Shown here: positions 4,514 to 54,600 of the stretch, piece by piece
Layout of the letters: each line of letters opens with the position of its first letter
Position numbering within the stretch: position 1 is the first letter of the stretch
From: Eledone cirrhosa
Taxonomy: Eukaryota
Direction: 5' to 3'
Length of the DNA stretch: 64,000 bases
Assembly: GCA_964016885.1 (NCBI GenBank)
Contig: OZ024758.1
Span: 27,776,001 to 27,840,000, forward strand
Notes under the pieces: generated by a model
The model's input: only the letters and a program-made list of their open reading frames with translations
Told to the model about the DNA's origin: nothing
The model's database searches: none
Made by a program: the position numbers and the translations under genes

Positions 4514-4697
4514 GGATTGGCAGTATCAGTAGAGGGTCGGACGCCATGCTTTCTAGCATAGAGTTACGTCCCTTTACAGACTGAGTTCAAATCCCTCCAA
4601 GGTTAACTTTGCCTTTCATCCTTACGGGGTCGATAAAATAAAGTACCGGTAATGTACTGGGTAATTGCTGGCCTTGTGCCAAAAGTAGAAACAATTA
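4514..4697 (+). mobile_element. SINE family C (Nin/Deu-like domain)
   Basis: B-box-like GAGTTCAAATCC plus TTTGCCTTTCATCCTTACGGGGTCGATAAAATAAAGTACC, which resembles the recalled Nin/Deu domain; six copies in the window. Confidence 0.8.
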
Positions 4698-5330: not shown

Positions 5331-5509
5331 TAGACAGTAATCATAACATGTAGGTATTTGATGTACACAACCATCTCAATTTCCAGGTCACTGACAGTGG
5401 TTCTGCTGTTTATCCTGTGATAACACATAAAAACTATGAGTATTTGACAAGTCAGGCAGCATAAAATAATCCTTTCTTTTTAATTCCATTGTTTTATGTA
5501 AATATATAT

Positions 5510-5690
5510 AATTGTTTCTACTTTTGGCACAAGGCCAGCAATTACCCAGTGCATTACTGGTACTTTATTTTATCGACCCCGTAAGGATGAAAGGCAAAGT
5601 CAACCTCGGCGGGATTTGAACTCAGATCGTAAAGGGACGTAACTATATGTTGGAAAGCATGGCGTCCGACCCTCTACCGATACTGCCAAT
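5510..5690 (-). mobile_element. SINE family C (Nin/Deu-like), inverted copy
   Basis: Reverse complement of 4514-4697. Confidence 0.85.
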
Positions 5691-41989: not shown

Positions 41990-42462
41990 ACACACACATG
42001 CCAGAATCCAATTCTTAGTATGTTCACCATAACCCCACATGCTATAAAAATCTACTAACTGGATTGGTTTAAGGAAGGGCATCGCGCTATAAAGCATTAT
42101 CTCAGAATTCCTGTCCTACTCATTCCAGCATGGAATGTCGACATAAAAACGATGATGGTACAGAGAGAGAGAGAGAGAGATACCTTTATATATACATAAA
42201 TAACTACACCTCTTTCTCACATATATATATATATATATATATATATAGATATATATATATGTATATATATGCGAAGAAATACCAATGAGAATCAGCAGAC
42301 TACTGATGATGGACTTTCCTGTTTTTCGGTCTATTTTTTATTCATATATATACATATATATATATATATAACGAAGGAGGTGTGGTAAGGAACCAGATGG
42401 ACCATAACGCACCAGAGTACTCAATACTTAGGGTAATAGAGTTGGTAATATGAAAAAGTATG

Positions 42463-42549
42463 ACCCCGACGGCAGAGCTCAAGCCGTTTCGACGGCTATT
42501 TCTGGTCCAGAAATAGCCGTCGAAACGGCTTGAGCTCTGCCGTCGGGGT
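42463..42549. repeat. Perfect hairpin (43-bp arms, 1-nt loop) built from the hammerhead 3' half
   Basis: ACCCCGACGGCAGAGCTCAAGCCGTTTCGACGGCTATTTCTGG-T-reverse complement. Confidence 0.92.
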
Positions 42550-42560
42550 TAAACATTTTC

Positions 42561-42627
<67 letters not shown>

Positions 42628-42814
42628 CTTCCCACACACAAACATATACATATGTATACACACACAAACATGTATACACATCACATATATATAAGAATCT
42701 ACGCACACTATATATATATACACACGTCCACACTAACATATCTACACACACACACACACACGTAATGGGTTCGGTTCCTGAGCAAGACGTTTTATTTCAC
42801 ATTAATTTCATGAT

Positions 42815-42938
42815 CCCTTTACGGACTGAGTTCAAATCCCGCCGAGGTTGACTTTGCCTTTCATCCTTACGGGGTCGATAAAATAAAGTACCAGTAATGC
42901 ACTGGTTAATTGCTGGCCTTGTGCCTAAAGTAGAAATA
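42815..42938 (+). mobile_element. 5'-truncated SINE family C with 14-bp TSD
   Basis: ATTAATTTCATGAT at 42801-42814 and 42939-42952. Confidence 0.85.
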
Positions 42939-42960
42939 ATTAATTTCATGATAGATGTGG

Positions 42961-43102
42961 CAGGGTCGTCATCTTAGCATTATAGGCCCCTGGGCAAAGC
43001 AGAAAACTGGGGCCCCTATCTACACAACCACTCACAAGAATAAAAATACAAATGGGCCCCCCGGGCAACTGCCCAGCGTGCCCATGCGTTAAGACGGCCC
43101 TG
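42961..43102. mobile_element. hAT-type MITE (142 bp)
   Basis: TIR CAGGGTCGTC / GACGGCCCTG; perfect 8-bp TSD AGATGTGG at 42953-42960 and 43103-43110. Confidence 0.9.
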
Positions 43103-43286
43103 AGATGTGGGGCTCCTCTCATTAAAACACCTGATTAACCCATGAAATACAACTCCGTGGGTGGCTAGTTAAACCTACATAGGTTTCAGTTGTACATTTC
43201 ATATACACACTACATAAATATATGTAGTGTGTGTGTAGATTCTTATATATATGTGTGATGTGTATACATGTTTGTGTGTGGGAAGA

Positions 43287-43322
<36 letters not shown>

Positions 43323-43326
<4 letters not shown>

Positions 43327-43435
43327 AACAAGTAAGACCCCGACGGCTGAGCTCAAGCCGTTTCGACGGCTAATTCTAGACTCATTAGCCGTCGAAACGG
43401 CTTGAGCTCAGCCGTCGGGGTCTTACTTGTTCCTA
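43323..43435. repeat. Perfect hairpin (52-bp arms, 9-nt loop) built from the hammerhead 3' half; a further remnant at ~44581-44619
   Basis: Right arm: stem II ...TAGCCGTC-GAAA-CGGCT TGAGCTC AGCCG-TC-GGGGTC; the left arm is its exact reverse complement. Confidence 0.92.
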
Positions 43436-43512
43436 ATACCCACTCTACTACCCTAAGTATTGAGTACTTTGGGGCGTTATGGTCCACCTGGTTCCTTACC
43501 ACATTTCCTTCG

Positions 43513-43551
<39 letters not shown>

Positions 43552-43833
43552 GGGTCGTTATTTATGTATATATAAAGGTATGTCTCTCTCTCTCTCTACA
43601 TATATATATGTGAGAGAGAGGGGTATATATATATACGTGTGTGTGTGTGTGTATGTATGTATACATACATCTGTCTATAAACATGCACAGCCACATTAAC
43701 AAAGACGTTAGCATGCAAATTACAACTGCAACGATGCTGCAACAACACATTACAGGGATACCAAATGATTATTCTACGTAAACAAAAATGTAAAAATAAA
43801 TCTCCGAACGAGTGTATGTGAATAAAAATAATG

Positions 43834-43867
<34 letters not shown>

Positions 43868-44299
43868 TATATATACATATATATATACATACATATATAT
43901 ATATACATATATATATACATACATATATATATATACATACATATATATATACATATATATATACATACATATATATATATACATACATATATATATATAC
44001 ATACATATATATATACATATATATATACATACATATATATATACATATATATATACATATATATATACATACATATATATATACATATATATATACATAC
44101 ATATATATATACACACACATATATATACATATATATATATACACACACATATATATATACATATATACATAGATATATATACATATATACATACAGATAT
44201 ATATACATATATACATACATATCCATTATATATATATATATACATTATCTCTCTCTCTCCCTATATATATATATATATATAGGGAGAGAGAGAGATAAT

Positions 44300-44398
44300 T
44301 ATTTCTACTTTTAGCACAAGGCCAGCAATTATCCGAGTACATTACTGGTACTTTATTTTATCGACCCCGTAAGGATGAAAGGCAAAGTTAACCTCGGT
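44300..44398 (-). mobile_element. Truncated SINE family C with AGAGATAAT TSD; other truncated copies at 46200-46290 (+) and 61652-61710 (-)
   Basis: Homology to 4514-4697. Confidence 0.8.
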
Positions 44399-44616
44399 GA
44401 AGAGATAATGTATATATATATATATAATGGATATGTATGTATATATGTGTGTGTGTATATATGTATATATATATATATGTGTGTATATATGTATATATAT
44501 AAATGTGTATATATATATGTATGTATATATATATATATATGTATATATATATGTGTGTGTGTGTGTGTGTGAAAAATTTATGGACCCCGACGGCTCAGCC
44601 CCTGCCGTTTCAACAG

Positions 44617-44688
<72 letters not shown>

Positions 44689-45236
44689 GTGTGTGTGAAT
44701 ATATACACCACGAATATCGAGACTCAGGTGATGCCAAATTCTTCGCGAAACCATCTCTCAGTTAACGTACAGCAGACACCAGCAGACACCAGCAGCAACA
44801 GGAGAGTCCCGTCTAAAATATGTAATTTGTTGTCCTTTACGAACCAAACCAGTCGCCAAGAAAATGTCTAAATGTCTAAATTGTCAGTGCTCGACATAGA
44901 AATGTCAACTCTAGTATGTTACATTACGATGGTAATATAATAATTAAAGGTGAATGCAAGAAAACATTAAATGAAAAAAAAAAATATGAGAGAGAGAGAT
45001 GCATTAGTTTTGTTTGTAAAATACTTCGTAGAAAAAAAAAATTATATATATATATGTGTGTGTGTGTGTGTATATATGTGGGGGTGTGTGTATATGTGTG
45101 TGGGTGTGTGTGTGTGTATAATGAGAGAAATCAAACTGGTTTGTTTATTTTTTTTTTGGTTTTTTTTTTGTATTTTTTTTTTTTTTTGCGAGTATATAGA
45201 TTGTGATCGGTAATATATGTCGATAAATGGACTTAC

Positions 45237-47714: not shown

Positions 47715-50700
47715 GCCAGTGAGGAATAGCATAGCTCAGAGGTTACAGGCAAGGCTGTAGTATGAAGATGTTCATTGCTGTAGCCAGTGGGGAATAGCAT
47801 AGCTCAGAGGTTACAGGCAAGGCTGTAGGATGAAGATGTTCATTGCTGTAGCCAGTGAGGAATAGCATAGCTCAGAGGTTACAGGCAAGGCTGTAGGATG
47901 AAGATGTTCATTGCTGTAGCCAGTGAGGAATAGCATAGCTCAGAGGTTACAGGCAAGGCTGTAGGATGAAGATGTTCATTGCTGTAGCCAGTGAGGAATA
48001 GCATAGCTCAGAGGTTACAGGCAAGGCTGTAGGATGAAGATGTTCATTGCTGTAGCCAGTGAGGAATAGCATAGCTCAGAGGTTACAGGCAAGGCTGTAG
48101 GATGAAGATGTTCATTGCTGTAGCCAGTGAGGAATAGCATAGCTCAGAGGTTACAGGCAAGGCTGTAGGATGAAGATGTTCATTGCTGTAGCCAGTGAGG
48201 AATAGCATAGCTCAGAGGTTACAGGCAAGGCTGTAGGATGAAGATGTTCATTGCTGTAGCCAGTGGGGAATAGCATAGCTCAGAGGTTACAGGCAAGGCT
48301 GTAGGATGAAGATGTTCATTGCTGTAGCCAGTGGGGAATAGCATAGCTCAGAGGTTACAGGCAAGGCTGTAGGATGAAGATGTTCATTGCTGTAGCCAGT
48401 GGGGAATAGCATAGCTCAGAGGTTACAGGCAAGGCTGTAGGATGAAGATGTTCATTGCTGTAGCCAGTGGGGAATAGCATAGCTCAGAGGTTACAGGCAA
48501 GGCTGTAGGATGAAGATGTTCATTGCTGTAGCCAGTGGGGAATAGCATAGCTCAGAGGTTACAGGCAAGGCTGTAGGATGAAGATGTTCATTGCTGTAGC
48601 CAGTGGGGAATAGCATAGCTCAGAGGTTACAGGCAAGGCTGTAGGATGAAGATGTTCATTGCTGTAGCCAGTGAGGAATAGCATAGCTCAGAGGTTACAG
48701 GCAAGGCTGTAGGATGAAGATGTTCATTGCTGTAGCCAGTGGGGAATAGCATAGCTCAGAGGTTACAGGCAAGGCTGTAGGATGAAGATGTTCATTGCTG
48801 TAGCCAGTGGGGAATAGCATAGCTCAGAGGTTACAGGCAAGGCTGTAGGATGAAGATGTTCATTGCTGTAGCCAGTGGGGAATAGCATAGCTCAGAGGTT
48901 ACAGGCAAGGCTGTAGGATGAAGATGTTCATTGCTGTAGCCAGTGAGGAATAGCATAGCTCAGAGGTTACAGGCAAGGCTGTAGGATGAAGATGTTCATT
49001 GCTGTAGCCAGTGGGGAATAGCATAGCTCAGAGGTTACAGGCAAGGCTGTAGGATGAAGATGTTCATTGCTGTAGCCAGTGGGGAATAGCATAGCTCAGA
49101 GGTTACAGGCAAGGCTGTAGGATGAAGATGTTCATTGCTGTAGCCAGTGAGGAATAGCATAGCTCAGAGGTTACAGGCAAGGCTGTAGGATGAAGATGTT
49201 CATTGCTGTAGCCAGTGGGGAATAGCATAGCTCAGAGGTTACAGGCAAGGCTGTAGGATGAAGATGTTCATTGCTGTAGCCAGTGAGGAATAGCATAGCT
49301 CAGAGGTTACAGGCAAGGCTGTAGGATGAAGATGTTCATTGCTGTAGCCAGTGAGGAATAGCATAGCTCAGAGGTTACAGGCAAGGCTGTAGGATGAAGA
49401 TGTTCATTGCTGTAGCCAGTGGGGAATAGCATAGCTCAGAGGTTACAGGCAAGGCTGTAGGATGAAGATGTTCATTGCTGTAGCCAGTGGGGAATAGCAT
49501 AGCTTAGAGGTTACAGGCAAGGCTGTAGGATGAAGATGTTCATTGCTGTAGCCAGTGAGGAATAGCATAGCTCAGAGGTTACAGGCAAGGCTGTAGGATG
49601 AAGATGTTCATTGCTGTAGCCAGTGGGGAATAGCATAGCTTAGAGGTTACAGGCAAGGCTGTAGGATGAAGATGTTCATTGCTGTAGCCAGTGGGGAATA
49701 GCATAGCTTAGAGGTTACAGGCAAGGCTGTAGGATGAAGATGTTCATTGCTGTAGCCAGTGGGGAATAGCATAGCTTAGAGGTTACAGGCAAGGCTGTAG
49801 GATGAAGATGTTCATTGCTGTAGCCAGTGAGGAATAGCATAGCTCAGAGGTTACAGGCAAGGCTGTAGGATGAAGATGTTCATTGCTGTAGCCAGTGGGG
49901 AATAGCATAGCTCAGAGGTTACAGGCAAGGCTGTAGGATGAAGATGTTCATTGCTGTAGCCAGTGGGGAATAGCATAGCTCAGAGGTTACAGGCAAGGCT
50001 GTAGGATGAAGATGTTCATTGCTGTAGCCAGTGAGGAATAGCATAGCTCAGAGGTTACAGGCAAGGCTGTAGGATGAAGATGTTCATTGCTGTAGCCAGT
50101 GGGGAATAGCATAGCTCAGAGGTTACAGGCAAGGCTGTAGGATGAAGATGTTCATTGCTGTAGCCAGTGGGGAATAGCATAGCTCAGAGGTTACAGGCAA
50201 GGCTGTAGGATGAAGATGTTCATTGCTGTAGCCAGTGAGGAATAGCATAGCTCAGAGGTTACAGGCAAGGCTGTAGGATGAAGATGTTCATTGCTGTAGC
50301 CAGTGGGGAATAGCATAGCTCAGAGCTTACAGGCAAGGCTGTAGGATGAAGATGTTCATTGCTGTAGCCAGTGGGGAATAGCATAGCTCAGAGGTTACAG
50401 GCAAGGCTGTAGGATGAAGATGTTCATTGCTGTAGCCAGTGGGGAATAGCATAGCTCAGAGGTTACAGGCAAGGCTGTAGGATGAAGATGTTCATTGCTG
50501 TAGCCAGTGAGGAATAGCATAGCTCAGAGGTTACAGGCAAGGCTGTAGGATGAAGATGTTCATTGCTGTAGCCAGTGGGGAATAGCATAGCTCAGAGGTT
50601 ACAGGCAAGGCTGTAGGATGAAGATGTTCATTGCTGTAGCCAGTGGGGAATAGCATAGCTCAGAGGTTACAGGCAAGGCTGTAGGATGAAGATGTTCATT

Positions 50701-51540
50701 GCTGTAGCCAGTGGGGAATAGCATAGCTCAGAGGTTACAGGCAAGGCTGTAGGATGAAGATGTTCATTGCTGTAGCCAGTGGGGAATAGCATAGCTCAGA
50801 GGTTACAGGCAAGGCTGTAGGATGAAGATGTTCATTGCTGTAGCCAGTGGGGAATAGCATAGCTCAGAGGTTACAGGCAAGGCTGTAGGATGAAGATGTT
50901 CATTGCTGTAGCCAGTGGGGAATAGCATAGCTCAGAGGTTACAGGCAAGGCTGTAGGATGAAGATGTTCATTGCTGTAGCCAGTGGGGAATAGCATAGCT
51001 CAGAGGTTACAGGCAAGGCTGTAGGATGAAGATGTTCATTGCTGTAGCCAGTGAGGAATAGCATAGCTCAGAGGTTACAGGCAAGGCTGTAGGATGAAGA
51101 TGTTCATTGCTGTAGCCAGTGGGGAATAGCATAGCTCAGAGGTTACAGGCAAGGCTGTAGGATGAAGATGTTCATTGCTGTAGCCAGTGGGGAATAGCAT
51201 AGCTCAGAGGTTACAGGCAAGGCTGTAGGATGAAGATGTTCATTGCTGTAGCCAGTGAGGAATAGCATAGCTCAGAGGTTACAGGCAAGGCTGTAGGATG
51301 AAGATGTTCATTGCTGTAGCCAGTGAGGAATAGCATAGCTCAGAGGTTACAGGCAAGGCTGTAGGATGAAGATGTTCATTGCTGTAGCCAGTGAGGAATA
51401 GCATAGCTCAGAGGTTACAGGCAAGGCTGTAGGATGAAGATGTTCATTGGTGTAGCCAGTGGGGAATAGCATAGCTCAGAGGTTACAGGCAAGGCTGTAG
51501 GATGAAGATGTTCATTGCTGTAGCCAGTGGGGAATAGCAT
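47715..51540. repeat. 68-bp satellite, ~56 near-identical copies
   Basis: Unit GCCAGTG(A/G)GGAATAGCATAGCTCAGAGGTTACAGGCAAGGCTGTAGGATGAAGATGTTCATTGCTGTA. Confidence 0.97.
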
Positions 51541-51544
51541 TGCA

Positions 51545-51715
51545 GGCTGGAAGGGACCCTGCAACAGGTGGCTGGATATCATCAGAGAAGATCTCCGGAG
51601 GCTCAACATCACCTTCGAAGATGCAGAGGAGCTGGCACAGGACCACCAATGATGGAGGGCACTGGTGGACCCGGTTAGCTCTACACACAACGATGCCTTA
51701 GGATCGTTGACTTAG
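51545..51715 (+). mobile_element. RTE/RTE-X LINE 3' fragment
   Basis: NRWLDIIREDLRRLNITFEDAEELAQDHQ*WRALVD. Confidence 0.7.
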
Positions 51716-51919
51716 GATGACCCTGGGGTTGTTGAGCAAGACCAAGAAGAAGAGGTTACAATGAAAACTGTAGGGGGAAGAAGTACATTCACAACCATGT
51801 GGTTCCAAGTTCGATTCTATTGTAGAGTATCTTTGGCAAGTAATTTCTACCATACTCTTGGATTGACTATGGCCTCGTCAATGAAATTGGGTAGACAGAC
51901 ACTGTGTGGAAAGCTATGC

Positions 51920-54600
51920 TCTTCCTATCACCAACCACATTACAGAGTGTACTGGGTGCATTTATCATGTAAATCATCAACATTAGGGAGTTTGTCATGT
52001 CTTTGACACAGCTGAAGAGCCCCACTTCCCAACATTTATTTAGTGGGTTTTTTACATCTAGAAGTCCTTCCTATCACCAACCACATTACAGAGTGTACTG
52101 GGTGCATTTATCATGTAAATCATCAACATTAGGGAGTTTGTCATGTCTTTGACACAGCTGAAGAGCCCCACTTCCCAACATTTATTTAGTGGGTTTTCTA
52201 CATCTAGAAGTCCTTCCTAACACCAACCACATTACAGAGTGTACTGGGTGCATTTATCATGTAAATCATCAACATTAGGGAGTTTGTCATGTCTTTGACA
52301 CAGCTGAAGCGCCCCACTTCCCAACATTTTATTTAGTGGGTTTTCTACATCTAGATGTCCTTCCTAACACCAACCACATTACAGAGTGTACTGGGTGCAT
52401 TTATCATGTAAATCATCAACATTAGGGAGTTTGTCATGTCTTTGACACAGCTGAAGAGCCCCACTTCCCAACATTTATTTAGTGGGTTTTCTACATCTAG
52501 ATGTCCTTCCTAACACCAACCACATTACAGAGTGTACTGGGTGCATTTATCATGTAAATCATCAACATGAGGGAGTTTGTCATGTCTTTGACACAGCTGA
52601 AGAGCCCCACTTCCCAACATTTTATTTAGTGGGTTTTCTACATCTAGATGTCCTTCCTAACACCAACCACATTACAGAGTGTACTGGGTGCATTTATCAT
52701 GTAAATCATCAACATTAGGGAGTTTGTCATGTCTTTGACACAGCTGAAGAGCCCCACTTCCCAACATTTTATTTAGTGGGTTTTCTACATCTAGATCCTT
52801 CCTAACACCAACCACATTACAGAGTGTACTGGGTGCATTTATCATGTAAATCATCAACATGAGGGAGTTTGTCATGTCTTTGACACAGCTGAAGAGCCCC
52901 ACTTCCCAACATTTTATTTAGTGGGTTTTCTACATCTAGATCCTTCCTAACACCAACCACATTACAGAGTGTACTGGGTGCATTTATCATGTAAATCATC
53001 AACATGAGGGAGTTTGTCGTGTCTTTGACACAGCTGAAGAGCCCCACTTCCCAACATTTATTTAGTGGGTTTTCTACATCTAGATGTCCTTCCTAACACC
53101 AACCACATTACAGAGTGTACTGGGTGCATTTATCATGTAAATCATCAACATTAGGGAGTTTGTCATGTCTTTGACACAGCTGAAGAGCCCCACTTCCCAA
53201 CATTTTATTTAGTGGGTTTTCTACATCTAGAAGTCCTTCCTAACACCAACCACATTACAGAGTGTACTGGGTGCATTTATCATGTAAATCATCAACATTA
53301 GGGAGTTTGTCATGTCTTTGACACAGCTGAAGAGCCCCACTTCCCAACATTTTATTTAGTGGGTTTTCTACATCTAGAAGTCCTTCCTAACACCAACCAC
53401 ATTACAGAGTGTACTGGGTGCATTTATCATGTAAATCATCAACATGAGGGAGTTTGTCATGTCTTTGACACAGCTGAAGAGCCCCACTTCCCAACATTTA
53501 TTTAGTGGGTTTTCTACATCTAGAAGTCCTTCCTAACACCAACCACATTACAGAGTGTACTGGGTGCATTTATCATGTAAATCATCAACATGAGGGAGTT
53601 TGTCATGTCTTTGACACAGCTGAAGAGCCCCACTTCCCAACATTTTATTTAGTGGGTTTTCTACATCTAGATCCTTCCTAACACCAACCACATTACAGAG
53701 TGTACTGGGTGCATTTATCATGTAAATCATCAACATTAGGGAGTTTGTCATGTCTTTGACACAGCTGAAGAGCCCCACTTCCCAACATTTTATTTAGTGG
53801 GTTTTCTACATCTAGATCCTTCCTAACACCAACCACATTACAGAGTGTACTGGGTGCATTTATCATGTAAATCATCAACATGAGGGAGTTTGTCATGTCT
53901 TTGACACAGCTGAAGAGCCCCACTTCCCAACATTTATTTAGTGGGTTTTCTACATCTAGAAGTCCTTCCTAACACCAACCACATTACAGAGTGTACTGGG
54001 TGCATTTATCATGTAAATCATCAACATGAGGGAGTTTGTCATGTCTTTGACACAGCTGAAGAGCCCCACTTCCCAACATTTTATTTAGTGGGTTTTCTAC
54101 ATCTAGATCCTTCCTAACACCAACCACATTACAGAGTGTACTGGGTGCATTTATCATGTAAATCATCAACATTAGGGAGTTTGTCATGTCTTTGACACAG
54201 CTGAAGAGCCCCACTTCCCAACATTTTATTTAGTGGGTTTTCTACATCTAGAAGTCCTTCCTAACACCAACCACATTACAGAGTGTACTGGGTGCATTTA
54301 TCATGTAAATCATCAACATGAGGGAGTTTGTCATGTCTTTGACACAGCTGAAGAGCCCCACTTCCCAACATTTTATTTAGTGGGTTTTCTACATCTAGAA
54401 GTCCTTCCTAACACCAACCACATTACAGAGTGTACTGGGTGCATTTATCATGTAAATCATCAACATGAGGGAGTTTGTCATGTCTTTGACACAGCTGAAG
54501 AGCCCCACTTCCCAACATTTATTTAGTGGGTTTTCTACATCTAGATCCTTCCTAACACCAACCACATTACAGAGTGTACTGGGTGCATTTATTATGTACA
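51920..54600. repeat. ~146-bp satellite, ~18 copies, containing the antisense SINE Meta-like module
   Basis: Each unit contains CCTTCCTAACACCAACCACATTACAGAGTGTACTGGGTGCATTT, the reverse complement of the SINE segment AAATGCACCCAG...GGTTGGTGTTAGGAAGG. Confidence 0.95.

Follow-up and report, generated by a model that had tools for sequence, protein, structure and literature searches.

Two hairpin islands lie between (TA)n tracts

The window, a stretch of 64,000 nucleotides from Eledone cirrhosa (contig OZ024758.1, positions 27,776,001 to 27,840,000), contains two islands that are 87% alike, lie in opposite orientation and are each located between (TA)n tracts. Both contain a hairpin at the place given by the first-pass annotation of this DNA. 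In the hairpin of island 1 (42463-42549), 43 of 43 positions pair about a single central base, and in that of island 2 (43323-43435) 52 perfect pairs enclose a 9-nt loop. Their folding z-scores are -16.7 and -22.2, and none of 200 shuffled sequences was equally stable. Read outward, each arm gives TAGCCGTC-GAAA-CGGC-TTGAGCTC(A/T)-GCCG-TC-GGGGT, as had been claimed. The 5' half of the hammerhead had been reported missing and is indeed missing from the islands: CTGANGA occurs in neither of them, and its sole occurrence in 42001-45000, at 42303, lies outside island 1. Each island also extends further on one side, by 80 nt (42371-42450 and 43434-43513). The hairpins are centred on GACGGCTA...TAGCCGTC, as the annotation states, but such a centre is forced by any inversion that includes TAGCCGTC and is uninformative on stem II.

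Positions within the element are numbered from the A of TTYAGTCCAG, which is +1. In island 1, the 80-nt tail (42371-42450, minus strand) corresponds to +59 to +138 according to its sequence and the positions in the natural copy L133, and ends CGT|TA against (TA)n. It adjoins the tailed arm (42451-42505, minus strand, +58 to +4), which comprises the hammerhead 3' half, that is the 3' strand of stem II, GAAA, stem III, GUC and the 3' strand of stem I. The untailed arm (42506-42561, plus strand) runs from about +3 to +58 and ends CC|TA against (TA)n; its last 14 nt come from another subfamily than the tailed arm. The (TA)n target tract to the right occupies 42562-42622 (unstranded), and similar tracts adjoin all four island ends. 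In island 2, the untailed arm (43325-43382, minus strand) covers +58 to +1 and is followed by a G before +1 (43383, minus strand) that is in neither arm's natural sequence. The tailed arm (43384-43433, plus strand) covers +9 to +58, with GAAA at 43394-43397 and the GUC triplet at 43414-43416, and the 80-nt tail (43434-43513, plus strand, +59 to +138) again ends CGT|TA against (TA)n. This tail belongs to a young subfamily, copies of which are 96-99% identical elsewhere. The G at 43383 may be a copied RNA cap; it is a single base, and the case for it rests on the genome-wide counts given below.

The islands sit mirror-wise in an older inverted duplication (42164-43600), the inner flanks of which (42659-42719 and 43218-43280) are 90-94% alike and the outer flanks (42164-42225 and 43538-43600) 88-90%. 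The mirror-placed islands nonetheless differ in subfamily and centre, which can be read either as conversion by a young copy or as independent insertion into the duplicated (TA)n tract. A 37-nt piece of the hammerhead 3' half, about 84% identical, reversed and ending in (TA)n, is located at 44583-44619 and probably comes from a relative family. Another dispersed repeat lies between the islands (42815-42945) and is found again at 4569-4697, 5509-5637 and 44296-44397, with copies 93-96% identical. About 29 kb of the window (about 12000-41000) consist of strand-biased TA/CA microsatellite with a GC content of about 10-15% and a GC skew near -1, and 4 kb (48001-52000) show a steady G-rich skew (0.27-0.40) at 47-48% GC and may be a tandem array. 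A repeat search over 38-48 kb was dominated by microsatellites, and an Rfam scan of the window returned low-complexity matches and no hammerhead family among the 150 of 651 matches listed.

The islands belong to a Hydra-type Penelope-like element

A 24-letter pattern of the tail had 28,235 exact matches in the 3-Gb genome, the control none. A GIY-YIG frame beside some of these matches led to tandem arrays with a unit of 3,531 nt, in which 784 codons are open (715 amino acids from the first Met) and YRDDG and VIY...YIG motifs can be read by eye. The tandem copies thus carry an open frame with reverse transcriptase (RT) and GIY-YIG motifs, which bears out the earlier identification as a Penelope-like element. 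Full-length relatives numbered 818 at E<=1e-20, and a Pfam search with the ORF gave no family at E 0.1.

The element has the features of Penelope-like (EN+) elements: a single ORF with RT and C-terminal GIY-YIG endonuclease, tandem or partial-tandem units that form pseudo-LTRs, an inverted truncated copy and a one-sided tail. Motifs of the Hydra clade are present in its protein as LRWRT (with R for K), HSDKTG, CNCPDRSIC, CNLC and CKH, there is no CCHH, and one Cys lies within the GIY-YIG core. Insertion into (TA)n, visible at the outer ends and in (TA)n loose ends of contigs from public runs, also agrees with this clade; the canonical hammerhead core CUGANGA occurs in none of 37 distinct natural copies. 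On its protein motifs the element is classed as Hydra-type, its ribozyme being a variant. Past the tail, full units continue into the ORF, and the island ends CC|TA (+58) and CGT|TA (+138) are therefore internal TA sites. The islands are short insertions of this very abundant Hydra-type Penelope-like element in (TA)n.

At L152:6770-10000 (G000:C1 about 91.489-91.492 Mb), the inner end of a multi-unit insertion is formed by a 55-nt ORF piece repeated in a long tandem array, which looks like the product of repeated template slippage by the RT.

Un-inverted copies carry a complete predicted hammerhead fold with a long loop II

The arms had been interpreted as the 3' half of a type I hammerhead, and the 5' half is present in un-inverted copies, where it gave 5,071 pattern matches genome-wide at about -55 to -28. 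In 37 distinct natural copies the order is ACCCC-YTGANRA-GHTCGGCTA, followed by a loop II of 37-39 nt. Their core reads TTGANAA (29 copies), CTGAGAA (7) or TTGAAGA (1) and never CTGANGA; it is mostly the U3-A8 variant, with an unpaired C3-A8 in 7 of the 37. U3-A8 is a described variant in Penelope-like elements (PMC4209133, accessible part). Of the 37 copies, 36 have G(C/A/T)TCGGCTA as the 5' strand of stem II, ACCCC/GGGGT is found in 30, and a change in stem III is tolerated as G-U. The 5' strand proper thus reads GHTCGGCTA, and what stands as GACGGCTA in the hairpins is a mirror image of TAGCCGTC and not a strand of stem II itself. The un-inverted repeat has a complete predicted type I hammerhead fold with three-way junction, stems I-III, GAAA and NUH, and with the long loop II. 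The minimum free energy fold of one copy (L133:4674-4776) has three stems and the three-way junction at a z-score of -0.79, and is no stabler than shuffled sequences.

Arms stop inside loop II

Genome-wide, 35,681 arms reach +8, 4,466 reach -7 and 5,071 sequences match further up; these counts were obtained with exact patterns of differing degeneracy and are not strictly comparable. The ends of both arms thus fall into a stretch of about 15 nt in loop II, at an initiator-like site located 29 nt below a TATA-like box. In 103 distinct hairpins with both arms reaching +11, every arm end was found between -7 and +11. At 90 tail-anchored loci, 45 tailed arms ended in this interval, 36 earlier, one in -8 to -60 and eight beyond, and the partner arm ended in it in 45 of 54 cases. 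BLAST-based arm ends include artefacts of palindromic centres and spurious (TA)n matches, and centres were re-determined by a walk. The same depth step, together with loose ends into (TA)n at both sites, was observed in public-run contigs (X1, X3, X5 and X6), the kind of which is unrecorded, which may include the assembly's own sample and in which depth does not equal copy number.

The stop zone contains initiator-like TCATTT and TYAGTC, with YYANWYY sites at -4 and +1, and the TATA-like TATTTAAA starts at -29 in L133 and varies among subfamilies. By promoter consensus, we take TCATTT, TYAGTC and TATTTAAA to be promoter-like motifs. A capped RNA start likely lies inside hammerhead loop II, as far as motifs and arm ends can tell. 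Against this reading counts that the inner ends are spread over -7 to +11 and do not fall on one base.

Runs of 9-23 A or T occur at arm ends beside the UUU at -3 to -1 (loci L157, L314, L324, L341, L008 and L307), suggesting RT stutter at the template end. Some centres have direct repeats of the +5 to +20 sequence (L011, L225, L233, L250 and L267), and a C stands before a G at +2 in 17 of 26 cases; both are consistent with re-priming at the GTC at +16 to +18 after run-off.

Almost every insertion has one tailed and one untailed end

Short head-to-head hairpins with a tailed and an untailed end numbered at least 10,765, compared to 86 with two untailed and 78 with two tailed ends, which means that 98.5% have one end of each kind. 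The same was found for 13 of 13 long inverted pairs analysed; 16 had been fetched, and L147-L149 were left out because they are tandem or an outer end was not covered. The tailed arm reaches further in for eight of these 13 pairs and the untailed arm for five (by 33-1,605 nt). In the 103 short hairpins the tailed arm is further in 57 times, the untailed arm 32 times, and 14 are equal; at tail-anchored loci the untailed arm is further in by at least 10 nt in 14 of 54. A copy of one cDNA must lie within that cDNA, and the cases with a longer untailed arm therefore imply either another synthesis on an RNA template or a deletion at a later time. If palindromes lose part of their centre after insertion, nested arms could come to look non-nested.

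The two arms belong to the same subfamily in 86 of 90 classifiable hairpins, where 70% mismatch would be expected at random. In 12 of 13 pairs the long arms differ at 0-5 of about 1,600 nt (L141 has 18 differences), and for eight long pairs of diverse subfamilies the nearest other copy is 15-32 differences away. Arms of two subfamilies are seen in island 1 and in L078; they make up 6 of 40 symmetric and 4 of 90 ordinary hairpins (p=0.07), with a further 49 ordinary and 15 symmetric hairpins unclassifiable. Because of these few two-subfamily hairpins, island 1 included, a source of both arms in one RNA is not universal. The 103 centres comprise 11 blunt joints, 51 with 1-6 nt of microhomology and 41 with inserts, some of them copied from nearby sequence.

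A cap-like G precedes many arms

Natural copies have T or C at -1 (31 of 31). Genome-wide patterns for arms, in contrast, gave G before +1 in 3,045 and A in 599 matches. The partner arm explains 12 of 30 G and 4 of 30 A cases, so that about 40% of the G may come from the partner; the unexplained 18 of 30 and 26 of 30 leave a ratio of about 3.5 to 1. Among 187 hairpins chosen without regard to this base, and with the count restricted to junctions that contain unexplained letters, G stands in front of 29 of 72 arms whose first base is A and of 17 of 120 others (p=9e-5). It is found before 18 of 27 arms starting at +1 and is weakly enriched at +6 (8 of 22); at -4, 21 arms have an extra T instead, which confounds the third start suggested there. 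At least eight palindromes, all found in the first 100 of the 3,045 G matches, have a G on both arms, and in seven of the eight 0-2 nt separate the two Gs. Such centres do not result from fold-back, since a single strand cannot loop through 0-2 nt and copy its own last base. In LINE-1, an untemplated G is an accepted sign of a copied cap (PMC4859970, accessible part).

A model with two target-primed cDNAs

We propose, with a probability of about 0.7 and on the strength of these junctions, that an insertion would consist of two target-primed cDNAs, begun at two RT start sites, run off at the capped RNA end and joined head to head. Pol II would start inside loop II, and the first repeat of the RNA would be without the ribozyme 5' half. 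An RNA starting at +1 should accordingly not self-cleave: it lacks this half and is predicted to fold a different hairpin at +12 to +27. The enzyme would cut the (TA)n target on both strands, and the resulting 3' ends would prime at the internal TA sites +58 and +138 of the RNA, a step based on the junctions in this genome and on in-vitro work with another Penelope-like element. With start sites only a short way downstream of the RNA 5' end, both cDNAs would run off at that end, and the cap would often be copied into an additional base. Their 3' ends would then be joined, bluntly, by 1-6 nt of microhomology or with short inserts, and each would template the second strand of the other. The templates would be RNA of the same source, probably one molecule with strand displacement, and long inverted copies with ORF would arise from the same event with earlier, unequal stops.

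Several points count against this model. Among them are the spread of the inner ends, the weak G enrichment at +6 and the extra T at -4, the share of G that may come from the partner arm, possible central deletions, the variation of the TATA-like box among subfamilies and the hairpins with arms of two subfamilies, all described above. Self-priming or later conversion would yield identical arms just as readily. Furthermore, the anole element showed no strand preference for its two start sites and no target homology in vitro (PMC11167929, accessible part), which is unlike the one-of-each rule and the TA match found here.

A stricter version, to which we would give an even chance, is obligate double priming: one RNP would use two fixed start sites on one RNA, and the overlapping cDNAs would be fused at their 3' ends. 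With the promoter in loop II and the first ribozyme disarmed, short capped 'strong-stop' RNA ends would seed tens of thousands of hairpins. If this is true, a single reaction accounts for both the inverted pseudo-LTR and the one-sided tail.

The main rival to the two-cDNA model, although an unlikely one, is that a single cDNA from +138 folds back at the RNA 5' end by microhomology or added bases and copies itself up to a stop at +58, the centre being trimmed later on either side. Only one nick would be needed, and the identical arms and the microhomology at 51 of 103 centres would be accounted for; the 6-nt spacer of L393 could be a minimal loop. However, the spacing of the double-G centres cannot be a loop, and in island 2 the untailed arm has the G while the tailed arm is the shorter one. 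In addition, the very young pair L144, without any difference between its arms, is non-nested by 1,022 nt, two-subfamily arms exist, and the fixed end at +58 fits the second RT start site measured in vitro for another element.

Two cDNAs might also be made from a longer, uncleaved RNA on which the RT stalls in loop II at a structure or bound protein. An inner helix in loop II, with its 3' strand at about -5 to +5, the spread of arm ends over 18 nt and the A-runs at some ends, which suggest stalling and slippage, would fit this. We consider it improbable, as the RT has by then read through stems III and II, which are stronger, hardly any ends lie in -8 to -60, the extra base is biased to G before A, and the spacing of the TATA-like and initiator-like motifs is canonical.

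Self-priming of an antisense transcript, proposed for head-to-head palindromes of rotifer Penelope elements (PMC3846280, accessible part), is very improbable here: the extra G precedes the sense +1 on both arms, and the +58/+138 rule is left unaccounted for. Self-priming in general is contradicted by the non-nested arms and by the double G with 0-2-nt spacers.

The first-pass annotation had put forward a particular form of self-priming, in which the nascent cDNA snaps back on hammerhead stem II and primes its second strand. Inversion centres do cluster, as it expected, between the two strands of stem II, and a stable stem II folds in the un-inverted copy. For this mechanism the cDNA would have to reach -33 to -36, and the natural 37-39-nt loop would be kept at the centre. 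The predicted junction had no match in the subfamilies covered by the pattern, compared to 10,765 short hairpins, and all 206 arm ends of the 103 hairpins lie at -7 or downstream. The cDNA cannot fold on the 5' strand of stem II, because the arms end some 20-40 nt short of it. Non-inverted copies had been expected to have CTGANGA directly before GACGGCTA; none of the 37 does, and the real 5' strand GHTCGGCTA is found 37-39 nt upstream. Snap-back on stem II is thus refuted for the bulk of the copies. What holds of the earlier interpretation is the Penelope-like identity, the hammerhead 3' half, the clustering of centres and the absence of transposon TIR/TSD ends, none of which were found at the element.

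The TA flanks, small size and high copy number would also fit assembly artefacts or DNA transposons of the foldback or MITE type with TA target duplications, but this reading is already refuted by the continuity with the retroelement ORF: the termini are different sites (+58 and +138) of a retroelement and not mutual inverted repeats, the same two ends bound RT and GIY-YIG copies and tandem arrays, the centres are all different, and the boundaries are the same in the run contigs.

Relation to known systems

Earlier work has already described this class of element, as well as the inverted copy, the tail and the U3-A8 variant. For Penelope-like elements, inverted truncated copies, the one-sided tail, (TA)n targeting and junction palindromes have been reported (accessible parts of PMC8557442 and PMC3846280), self-priming has been published as a proposal for the junction palindromes (PMC3846280), and the origin of the inverted 5' ends and the one-sided tail is named as open (PMC8557442). 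The accessible part of a preprint (10.64898/2026.07.22.740005) has no bearing on inversion. The present family adds a one-of-each rule based on counts, a stop position and a cap-like base on both arms; no prior statement of the one-of-each rule, the double cap sign or the start in loop II was found in a literature search outside older reviews and supplements. Together with the in-vitro observations of 2024 on two start sites and the extension of both strands, the counts join into one testable model. The two-cDNA model would explain the long-unexplained inverted-end signature of Penelope-like elements and suggests why a hammerhead in the repeat spares the mRNA 5' end. The element is also a source of more than 10,000 perfect palindromes of 50-60 bp in one animal genome.

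The element resembles the Hydra clade (Craig et al., 2021; PMC8557442), as described in the accessible part of that work, in its C-terminal GIY-YIG, in RW(K/R), DKT, CxCX5C, CxxC and CxH motifs without CCHH, and in the (TA)n target, the inverted 5'-truncated copy at the 5' end and the tail at one end. It differs in its unit of about 3.5 kb (mostly under 3 kb in the clade), a tail of 80 nt (30-40 nt described for Penelope-like elements generally) and a U3-A8 core with a 37-39-nt loop II in place of the canonical hammerhead. Tens of thousands of 200-nt hairpin copies are likewise unlike the description of the clade.

For Poseidon of the green anole, both target strands were cut and extended in vitro, and a dimer was predicted (Frangieh et al., 2024; PMC11167929). 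As here, two internal RT start sites bound the tail downstream of the hammerhead, and uncleaved RNA is used. Only in the element described here are the two sites used one each per insertion and do they match the target TA. A link from the two start sites to inverted ends was not found in the accessible text of that paper or by a word search of it.

Junctions of Adineta vaga Penelope elements (Arkhipova et al., 2013; PMC3846280, accessible part) share the head-to-head palindromes, the one-sided tail and TATA- and initiator-like motifs in the repeat. Their palindromes were attributed to self-priming, possibly on antisense RNA (PMC3846280). The counts obtained here favour two cDNAs templated by sense RNA.

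The start sites of our element are both fixed and 80 nt apart, and the same stretch is copied twice, which gives a palindrome. LINE-1 twin priming is similar in that both target ends reportedly prime cDNA on one RNA and the products are joined to give an inversion. Unlike here, it reportedly uses a variable internal site and copies non-overlapping parts. Twin priming goes back to Ostertag and Kazazian (2001), as cited in PMC4859970 (accessible part).

Hammerheads of Schistosoma Penelope-like elements (Cervera and de la Pena, 2014; PMC4209133, accessible part) have the U3-A8 core, a palindromic loop 3 and the occurrence of neighbouring motif pairs on opposite strands in common with the ribozyme described here. 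The Schistosoma hammerheads are minimal, whereas the present element has long stems II and III and probably carries its promoter in loop II.
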